NCBI GenBank assembly: GCA_007125155.1
Contig: SLDR01000010.1
Location: 24,490-88,489 of the forward strand
DNA: 64,000 nt
Source: Candidatus Campbellbacteria bacterium
Lineage (GTDB): Bacteria; Patescibacteriota; Minisyncoccia; Phycocordibacterales; CSBR16-193
Direction: 5' to 3'
Part shown: positions 387 through 850 of the stretch, one piece after another
Position numbering within the stretch: the first letter of the stretch is position 1
Layout of the letters: each line of letters starts with the position of its first letter
Program-made: the position numbers and the translations under genes
Notes under the pieces: generated by a model
What the model saw: the letters and a program-made list of their open reading frames with translations, nothing else
Database searches by the model: none
Told to the model about the DNA's origin: nothing

Positions 387-486
387 TTTTTAAATATAGC
401 GCGAAAGATACCTTTATTCAATGTTTTCTACTTTTTCTGTCATTTTTGTTCGCCGTTGACTCGGTAGAGATAGATCTTGTGGATAA

Positions 487-519
487 TTGAATTTGCAAAT
501 TATCTATGCGTTGTATAAT
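487..519 (+). promoter_or_regulatory. Sigma70-like promoter (TTGCAA -35 at 493..498, TATAAT at 514..519, TG just upstream)
   Basis: Near-consensus -35 and perfect -10 hexamers in an intergenic region. The 15-nt spacer is short. No CDS follows on the + strand before the convergent terminators at 781..850. Confidence 0.4.
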
Positions 520-812
520 TCTAAGTAGGGACCTTTGAGAAGCGAATCGCAAAAACGATTCAGTTGTTTAAAATGACCTAAAGCTGTTCGGAAAAGATGT
601 GATTACCTACGGGGAAAGCCGGACATACCGAGGATTCGATATATCTTCTAAAGCGCGCGGAAGATGAAGGTTACTACCTACGGGGAAAGCCGTCGGAAAC
701 AAAGATGTCATTTCCGAAAGTGGACACTCAAGGGTGTTCGGTTTATCTTAAATAACAAACTTTTCAAGGTCCTGAACAAAAGCCCCGCCGAGCGGGTCTT
801 TTGTTTTTAAAA
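520..812 (+). ncRNA. Candidate small non-coding RNA of unknown family, about 290 nt
   Basis: Bounded by the promoter at 487..519 and a hairpin plus T-tract at 781..812. Contains a 30-nt direct repeat (AAGATGnnnTTACCTACGGGGAAAGCCG at 594..622 and 661..692) and a local hairpin GAATCGCAAAAACGATTC at 543..560. No ORF of 60 aa or more with an RBS. Confidence 0.3.
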
Positions 813-850
813 CAAAAGACCCGTCTATTTTTTAAAGACGGGTCTTAAAA
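781..850. terminator. Convergent rho-independent terminators
   Basis: Hairpin CCCGC-CGA-GCGGG followed by TCTTTTGTTTTT on the + strand. An 11-bp hairpin AAGACCCGTCT/AGACGGGTCTT at 808..838 has a T-tract on the minus strand and serves the minus gene ending at 857. Confidence 0.55.

Follow-up and report, generated by a model that had tools for sequence, protein, structure and literature searches.

We analysed a stretch of 64,000 nucleotides (nt) of Candidatus Campbellbacteria bacterium DNA (assembly GCA_007125155.1, contig SLDR01000010.1, positions 24,490 to 88,489 of the forward strand), referred to here as the window, and we describe an RNA element on its + strand, next to the gene scpA. The element, at positions 526–808 of the window, is almost certainly a genuine structured non-coding RNA (ncRNA) gene. 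It has a predicted promoter and a predicted intrinsic terminator of its own, both conserved in orthologous loci, and on these grounds it is an independent small RNA (sRNA) gene. The initial annotation, which was made from the letters of the window, had already proposed a non-coding sRNA on the + strand between its own promoter and terminator; the comparison with relatives bears this out through an invariant −10 element, a covarying terminator and ten helices with compensatory changes. The RNA matches no described family and is a new family built from known modules. As far as sampled, it is restricted to one narrow clade of the Paceibacterota, which belong to the Patescibacteria or candidate phyla radiation (CPR).

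Bacterial RNAs of more than ~200 nt with a complex fold are rare; their known functions are mostly those of ribozymes, of ribonucleoprotein cores and, recently, of self-assembling cages. In Patescibacteria, whose genomes are tiny, few ncRNAs are known. Against this background we found a ten-helix RNA under stronger purifying selection than the neighbouring essential gene: the mean pairwise nucleotide identity is 72.9% for the RNA gene, 67.1% for the coding DNA of scpA and 55.6% for the spacer. Because it is conserved so strongly, above the level of the neighbouring essential gene, the RNA probably does something important for this clade. It also offers three handles for further work, namely two identical modules of the sarcin–ricin type, an invariant palindromic loop like that of the human immunodeficiency virus (HIV) dimerisation initiation site (DIS) and a DnaA box whose position in the promoter is fixed.

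Relatives were chosen by homology of their ScpA proteins, which also places the window in the Paceibacterota, and the scpA loci of Paceibacterota (Patescibacteria), the nearest of them at 69–50% ScpA identity, were compared; individual loci are given by handles such as L011. The same element is found in nine distinct Paceibacterota loci and, in part, in a tenth, always divergent from scpA. According to the alignments it lies on the strand opposite scpA, and the gap 5' of scpA measures 420–600 nt in the nine distinct loci. A chance origin of the element is excluded by its conservation in nine independent loci. A covariance model built from the alignment and the proposed structure gives the nine copies scores of 204–293 bits; the partial tenth copy, which is cut by a contig end, reaches 48 bits. 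A scan of the window with this model found no second copy. The partial copy (L010:1–191, − strand) keeps the promoter, the 5' strands of P1–P4 and repeat 1, followed by total divergence to the contig end; it represents an assembly chimera or, alternatively, a variant that is truncated or rearranged.

Further copies were sought in larger collections. In a genome collection, two spaced copies of ACGGGGAAAGCC retrieved only unrelated tandem repeats (Streptomyces, Lachnospiraceae, Haloparvum and others), and a three-block pattern scan of metagenomes gave 18 matches, one of them real (L033, identical to L011) and 17 due to chance in GC-rich DNA; both pattern scans needed exact blocks and would miss diverged members. 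Nothing similar was found in a scan of viral contigs or by BLAST against phage and plasmid collections.

Fold and boundaries of the transcript

The predicted primary transcript (526–808, + strand, ~283 nt) comprises a structured body at 528–773 and the terminator hairpin, and its predicted start lies 2 nt ahead of helix P1. The + strand RNA of 525–830 folds 4.5 standard deviations better than shuffled sequences (z = −4.5), with a long-range closing helix. The proposed structure is a rod of ten helices with four three-way junctions: P1/P2/P3, P3b/P8/P4, P4/repeat-1/P5 and P6/P7/repeat-2. In the model-based alignment of the nine sequences, 91% of the pair cells form standard pairs. Compensatory changes are present in 32 of the 83 pairs, a number reached by none of 500 shuffles (mean 14.9), and control structures slid by 1–3 columns give 2–10 compensatory pairs. 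The compensatory changes for which the initial annotation suggested a comparative alignment are found, in ten helices, and the + strand holds 54 G–U cells vs 24 A–C cells.

The body is closed by helix P1 (528–542/760–773; 14 pairs, 96% of cells paired, four pairs compensatory). It is followed by P2 (544–561), a hairpin GAATCGCAAAAACGATTC with the A-rich loop CAAAAA, which the initial annotation had already recognised and which is indeed present; single-sequence folds of eight of the nine homologs contain the stem and the A-rich loop, with the stems GAAUCG, GUCG, GAACU, AGCU and AGCC. In P3a/P3b (563–578/740–756), P3a is 98.8% paired, with one position that alternates between AU, CG and GU, and P3b is recovered in the per-sequence folds with differing sequences. 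P4 (583–594/711–721) has compensatory changes in 7 of its 11 pairs; its variants include UUCGGAAA, GCUUUUUAAAA, GUCUGAAAAA, UCGAAAG and UUAUUUAGAAA, and it is also recovered in nearly all single-sequence folds. P5 (622–625/706–709), next to an internal loop, varies at two pairs (AU in four copies and GC in four; CG in three, UA in three and UG in two). Further along are P6 (635–639/693–697; three of five pairs compensatory, 95.5% of cells paired) and the P7 hairpin (642–666, loop 649–659), whose stem is 98% paired and shows compensatory changes. The P8 hairpin (722–739) branches from the P3b/P4 junction; it appears in the per-sequence folds of all nine homologs, with the variants ACAC/GUGU, GCGU/GCGC, GCU/AGC and GCC/GGC. 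All these helices are on the + strand. P2, P3b and P8 were misaligned by MAFFT, and their support comes from the independent single-sequence folds of nearly all nine homologs. RNAalifold paired the GAAAG of repeat 1 with UUUUC; we replaced this pairing by P4, which covaries far better. Extra tertiary pairs were sought among the unpaired columns of the alignment and none were found.

Upstream of the body is a sigma-70-type promoter (492–519, + strand), composed of the weak −35 element TTTGCA (492–497), a spacer of 16 nt and TATAAT (514–519), with 10 of 12 matches in the promoter scan. The initial annotation was right in placing a promoter here; its −35 element, TTGCAA (493–498), leaves a spacer of only 15 nt vs 16 nt with TTTGCA. 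The sequence TGTATAAT at 512–519 is invariant in all homologous loci, and in 10 of 10 loci it stands 8–9 nt ahead of the GGAC of P1.

Downstream, the terminator scan finds an intrinsic terminator at 775–808 (+ strand), flanked by A and U tracts. Its stem of 15 pairs is 94.8% paired and five pairs show compensatory change; for example, CCCGC/GCGGG becomes CUCGC/GCGAG in L037. Three overlapping palindromes are present in this region (784–796, 793–823 and 816–846), and the first of them, with its tracts at 775–808, is the only one that is conserved in relatives. Concerning the convergent terminators reported for 781–850, the hairpins are therefore present as described, and the last two are specific to the window. 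These two are perfect palindromes, with arms of 15 bp (793–823) and 11 bp (816–846), partly within 809–850, and they overlap each other and the terminator. They have the word AAAGACCCG in common, are absent from the other loci and probably terminate a convergent open reading frame of 72 amino acids on the − strand, which the terminator at 775–808 can also serve.

We assign the RNA to the + strand on the basis of TGTATAAT ahead of P1, the U-tract after the terminator stem, the excess of G–U over A–C cells and the presence of a separate promoter for scpA.

Also, a perfect DnaA box (TGTGGATAA on the + strand, TTATCCACA on the − strand) is located at 478–486, about −48 to −40 relative to the RNA promoter. 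In 10 of 10 loci (window, L010, L011, L013, L015–L018, L037 and L038) it lies exactly 27 nt 5' of TATAAT, and its distance to the scpA ATG varies between 37 and 116 nt. The window holds only two perfect DnaA boxes, this one included, and DnaA-box-like sites are not enriched in it (19 vs 15.8 expected). A box centred near −44, if bound by DnaA, suits an activator or a repressor of the RNA promoter; that such control is functionally important is doubtful in our view. A one-mismatch box, TGTGGATCA, is seen in the window only, at 851–859, just beyond the terminators.

Repeat modules and the palindromic P7 loop

The direct repeat pointed out in the initial annotation is confirmed in two copies, at 599–621 and 670–692. 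They match at 21 of 23 positions, the core ACCTACGGGGAAAGCCG is identical (17/17) and AAGATG precedes both. The sequence CTACGGGGAAAGCC is confined to these two sites within the 64-kb window, and we estimate the chance of a 17-mer repeat within 521 nt at ~1e-5. In the proposed fold, repeat 1 (598–620, + strand) forms the hairpin UGUG-AUUA-CC-UACG-GG-GAA-AGCC, an arm of the P4/P5 three-way junction, and repeat 2 (669–691, + strand) forms GGUU-ACUA-CC-UACG-GG-GAA-AGCC, an arm of the P6/P7 three-way junction. The general form of the module is an outer stem (GGUU/AGCC), a loop AGUA opposite GAA, an inner stem (CC/GG) and a tetraloop UACG of the UNCG type. The outer stem of repeat 2 shows one double change from GC to AU and two changes from UG to UA.

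All 18 repeat copies in the nine loci fit the pattern A-N-U-A/CY/tetraloop/GG/GAA, with GU/(A)GC pairs on the other side, and this longer hairpin explains every invariant base of the repeats. At the N position the copies read AGUA (12/18), AUUA (3), AAUA (2) or ACUA (1). AGUA opposite GAA is the canonical sequence of the sarcin–ricin (loop E, bulged-G) motif, and AUUA–GAA is a modelled variant of it (PMC1865062). Sarcin–ricin modules are autonomous and recurrent; they commonly sit where several helices join, and they act as docking surfaces (PMC8450098 and its reference 16). We regard the prediction that each 23-nt repeat is a hairpin with an internal loop of the sarcin–ricin/loop-E type as evenly balanced between true and false. 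The proposal of the initial annotation that the repeats could be tandem binding modules is plausible, and the predicted hairpins give it a more definite form.

Concerning the likeness to ribosomal RNA (rRNA), the repeats share AGUA opposite GAA, with Watson–Crick flanks, with the sarcin–ricin loop (SRL) and with 5S loop E. Presumably, the 5' strand GGUUAGUAC recurs in loop E of eukaryal 5S rRNA and the arrangement of the module parallels that of the 23S SRL, AGUA-C-GAGA-G-GA(A/C). The repeats differ in that their cap is UACG and not GAGA, the bulged-G position is G in 12 of 18 copies, the inner stem has 2 bp and the module lies outside rRNA; its geometry is predicted. The topology of P6, P7 and repeat 2 also resembles 5S rRNA, as a closing helix is followed by a hairpin arm and then by an arm with a loop-E-type internal loop; however, this domain has 63 nt vs 120, lacks 5S signatures and a 5S match in Rfam, and is embedded in a larger RNA. 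Among three copies scanned, the one of L017 gave a sub-threshold match to RT-18 (RF03021; 23.6 bits vs a gathering score of 41.3), in which the outer stem, UAGUA, the inner hairpin and GAAA are aligned. There is no reverse transcriptase gene near the RNA gene, and we read the resemblance as a shared structural module, not as homology or family membership. Sequences complementary to the repeats, as would be expected of antisense targets, are not enriched in the window (20 vs 18.5 expected).

The P7 loop carries AAGCGCGC at 651–658, with the palindrome GCGCGC at 653–658. GCGCGC is invariant in the nine copies, within AAGCGCGC in eight of them and within AGGCGCGC in L037. The 5' part of the loop varies by 0–9 extra nt and the loop always ends in GCGCGC. 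It thus exposes a self-complementary sequence in a hairpin loop, a feature of kissing-loop homodimers, and the computed energy of the loop self-duplex is −13.7 kcal/mol. No partner complementary to the palindrome was found elsewhere in the RNA. Natural RNA homodimers most often join through palindromic and kissing contacts (PMC12990946). That the RNA would dimerise through the P7 loop is a suggestion which we consider unlikely. The similarity to the HIV-1 DIS kissing loop consists of the 6-nt GC palindrome GCGCGC in a hairpin loop, with two purines ahead of it. We take the whole octamer AAGCGCGC to be identical to the DIS loop of HIV-1 Lai (AAGCGCGCA). In contrast to the DIS, the P7 loop has 9–17 nt with a variable A/U-rich 5' part and belongs to a bacterial RNA whose dimerisation is conjectural.

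Possible function and relation to known RNAs

The reading that we favour, and consider somewhat better than even, is that of a clade-restricted structured ncRNA which acts as a scaffold, may pair with itself and has a transcription possibly tied to DnaA. The RNA would act in trans as a rigid scaffold, with the two identical junction-arm modules as docking sites for two copies of a partner; this partner would most likely be a protein or protein dimer, alternatively another RNA surface. A protein-scaffold role in particular, with a partner postulated from the modules, is possible but rather unlikely. Two molecules might form a homodimer by pairing of their P7 loops AAGCGCGC. DnaA, bound at the box near −44, might modulate transcription and so couple the level of the RNA to the replication status, beside the scpAB cell-division operon.

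In its fullest form, an ornate RNA of a new class, under direct DnaA control, would form a symmetric RNA or ribonucleoprotein dimer, via GCGCGC and the two sarcin–ricin modules, and would take part in chromosome replication or segregation with ScpAB; we regard this combination as a long shot. If true, the dimer would serve the chromosome cycle of these bacteria as a structural RNA cofactor. DnaA control or self-assembly, if confirmed, would connect a structured RNA with the cycle of replication and segregation. To our knowledge, no such link has been established for a structured RNA in bacteria.

Several points weigh against the scaffold reading. The nine sequences are related and come from one narrow clade, so that the 32 compensatory pairs correspond to fewer independent events; the slid controls retain this relatedness, yet score far lower than 32. 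The bulged G, normally conserved in the motif, is replaced in 6 of the 18 repeat copies, including both copies of the window (AUUA and ACUA). Also, the repeats are near-invariant and for this reason covariation cannot decide their fold; an alternative hairpin of 3–4 bp (GGU-NANU-ACC) followed by single-stranded ACGGGGAAAGC fits the counts equally. Dimerisation and DnaA control are both conjectures from sequence, and the ends and abundance of the transcript are inferred from the promoter and the terminator. Concerning the locus, scpA is the sole strictly co-inherited neighbour gene, and the RNA was not found at the scpA locus of relatives with ScpA identities of 56% and 51%.

Of the alternatives to a scaffold, an RNA-only machine survives best, either as a self-assembling homo-oligomer or as a ribozyme with its conserved core in the apical domain. 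The complex, junction-rich fold and the invariant palindromic loop would suit it, and homo-oligomers have recently been demonstrated for several orphan bacterial RNAs (PMC12286853, PMC12990946). The RNA, however, has ~250 nt and falls below OLE, ROOL and GOLLD in size, it shows a single candidate contact between molecules, and Rfam scans of three copies at E<=10 found no known ribozyme core; we consider such a machine improbable. The RNA belongs to the orphan complex-folded bacterial ncRNAs. It shares with OLE, ROOL, GOLLD and raiA that the gene stands alone, between a promoter and a terminator of its own, that many helices covary and that nucleotides in junctions or loops are invariant; palindromic or kissing contacts are candidates for self-assembly (PMC12286853, PMC12990946). 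It differs from them in its smaller size (~250 nt), in having no sequence or structure homology to them, and in being seen in one Paceibacterota clade only, without association with phages or plasmids.

It is less probable still that the RNA is a trans-acting sensor with tandem aptamers, each repeat binding a small-molecule ligand or a metal ion. The two near-identical, invariant modules recall tandem riboswitches, and non-Watson–Crick loops form ligand and metal sites (PMC8450098). However, there is no + strand gene downstream and no expression platform, and the terminator is constitutive in design, with a convergent gene next to it. No sarcin–ricin module is known to serve as a ligand pocket.

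A diverged housekeeping RNA (RNase P, 6S, signal recognition particle (SRP) or transfer-messenger RNA (tmRNA)), missed by the Rfam models in CPR genomes, was considered as well. At the gathering score, Rfam 15 gave no match on either strand in the window or the nine loci, and permissive scans (E<=10; copies of the window, L037 and L017) returned only terminator-like noise and the RT-18 match. The cmscan comparison of both strands proposed in the initial annotation thus found no known family, which leaves the sRNA gene standing. The CPR genomes hold diverged RNase P RNAs, found only below noise cutoffs (PMC8172020), and for this reason the RNase P lead was tested explicitly. In its favour, GGGGAAAGCCGG resembles the P4 strand GGAAAGUCCGG (GGGGAAAGCC against the CR-I/P4 strand GGAAAGUCC). 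The two ends of the RNA pair with each other, a trait of RNase P, 6S and SRP RNAs, and the first helix is succeeded by a hairpin; also, 6S RNAs are little conserved in sequence. The initial annotation had mentioned the RNase P echo with doubt, and rightly so: the partner strand of P4 is not conserved and the topology differs. In the RNase P P4 helix, GGAAAGUCC pairs with the CR-V strand ACAGAAnnCGGCUUA; in the window, AAGCCG can pair with CGGUUU (740–745), but the would-be 3' strand (GUUCGGUUUA) is not conserved in the other loci, the pairing being weak in L011 and the segment unrelated and not complementary in L013, L015 and others. The motif is present in two copies and has no bulged U, and the other conserved regions of RNase P RNA (RF00010) are absent. 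The RNase P order P1–P2–P3(hairpin)–P4, with a nested specificity domain, is not seen either, as here P1 is followed by a hairpin, P3 and a chain of junctions, and the hairpin stands between P1 and P3, not inside P2. RF00010 and RF00011 gave no match at the gathering score, and none at E<=10 in the three copies, a listing in which matches of a few bits (PMC8172020) would not appear.

For the remaining housekeeping RNAs, the permissive scans of these three divergent copies gave no RNase P, 6S, SRP or tmRNA match at E<=10. There is no two-sided central bubble of the 6S type, since the 3' side between P5 and P4 consists of 1 nt and the interior junctions carry hairpin arms; the domain IV motif of SRP RNA is absent from the RNA; and ARAGORN finds no tmRNA in the window or the nine loci. 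Taken together, we consider a housekeeping RNA highly improbable. Other candidates were also set aside. A riboswitch or leader on the + strand would need a downstream + strand gene, of which there is none, and on the other side a scpA promoter lies between the element and the ATG. By eye, ACAAGGAUGU resembles the consensus for CsrA from systematic evolution of ligands by exponential enrichment (SELEX), but its GGA is AGA in the window and L018, which rejects a CsrA sponge. Likewise by eye, the key G of a kink-turn in the P5/P6 internal loop varies to A, a hammerhead core (GAUGA...GAAA) has the wrong spacing, and a T-box, a TIGR array and ToxI-type repeats were rejected on sequence variation or context.

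The two weakest alternatives are scarcely credible. A cis-regulatory leader or riboswitch on the − strand controlling scpAB would agree with the position of the element, always immediately 5' of scpA, and with a − strand that also folds better than shuffles (z = −3.1), but the conserved scpA promoter (TTGAAT-17-TATATT, 7 nt before the ATG) separates element and gene, so the element cannot be a scpA leader, the body pairing is 85.4% on the − strand vs 90.1% on the + strand because 49 G–U cells become C–A, and the invariant −10 and the U-tract are oriented for the + strand. A small protein from the ATG at 664 (MKVTTYGES...), with the conservation due to coding constraint, would account for an open reading frame (ORF) beginning MKV(S/T)TYGE(S/N) in seven of nine loci (48 amino acids in the window), but stops follow after 5 codons in L015 (ATG AAG GTA AAT ACC TAA) and after 9 in L037 (MKVSTQRES), the ORF measures 19–50 amino acids and its C-termini are unrelated from locus to locus, a second copy of the nucleotide block lies upstream in another frame, with TGA directly after ATG, there is no properly spaced Shine–Dalgarno sequence, and conservation tracks base-pairing, with 32 compensatory pairs. 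The N-terminal 'conservation' of this ORF is RNA-level conservation of repeat 2. A search of 386–856 gave no ORF above 48 amino acids and no ORF is conserved among the loci, which agrees with the earlier observation that the stretch holds no credible coding sequence.

Gene context of the element

The intergenic region extends over 386–856. The scpA gene (− strand) begins at 385 and continues past the edge of the window, and the ORF of 72 amino acids (857–1075, − strand) is convergent with the RNA gene. By way of this ORF the window also maps to contig SKMP01000011.1 of assembly GCA_007120995.1, and to a metagenome of soda-lake sediment. The gene on the far side of the element is variable among the loci: the 72-amino-acid ORF, aspartyl-tRNA synthetase, a Na/Ca exchanger, peptidase M17 or DnaJ. 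At the scpA locus of L039 and of L040/L041, two relatives at greater distance, the covariance model gave no match. In L040 (5598–6000), a gap of 403 nt 5' of scpA (ScpA identity 51%) is filled by an unrelated sequence with hairpins that does not match the RNA model, and this gap may hold a different element. Neither the GC skew nor the gene orientation of the window gives a sign of a replication origin.

A promoter-like block for scpA is present on the − strand within 383–421, with TTGAAT (421–416), a spacer of 17 nt and TATATT (398–393), located 7 nt before the ATG (385–383). The block is near-invariant across relatives and suggests that the scpA mRNA is leaderless or almost so.

Pfam scans of the 72-amino-acid ORF and of a second ORF of 191 amino acids (1303–1878, + strand) gave no domain match. 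The window's own genome (L008) contains the latter ORF; the closest relative (L011) lacks it at the syntenic locus. The 72-amino-acid protein is small and conserved, and it is found in the window, L011/L012, L017, L013/L014 (L013:2298–2500) and L015 (L015:1–190). In the L013/L014 homolog an in-frame TAA stands where L015 has TAC and the reading frame beyond it is still conserved, as would be expected of a pseudogene, a sequencing error or recoding.

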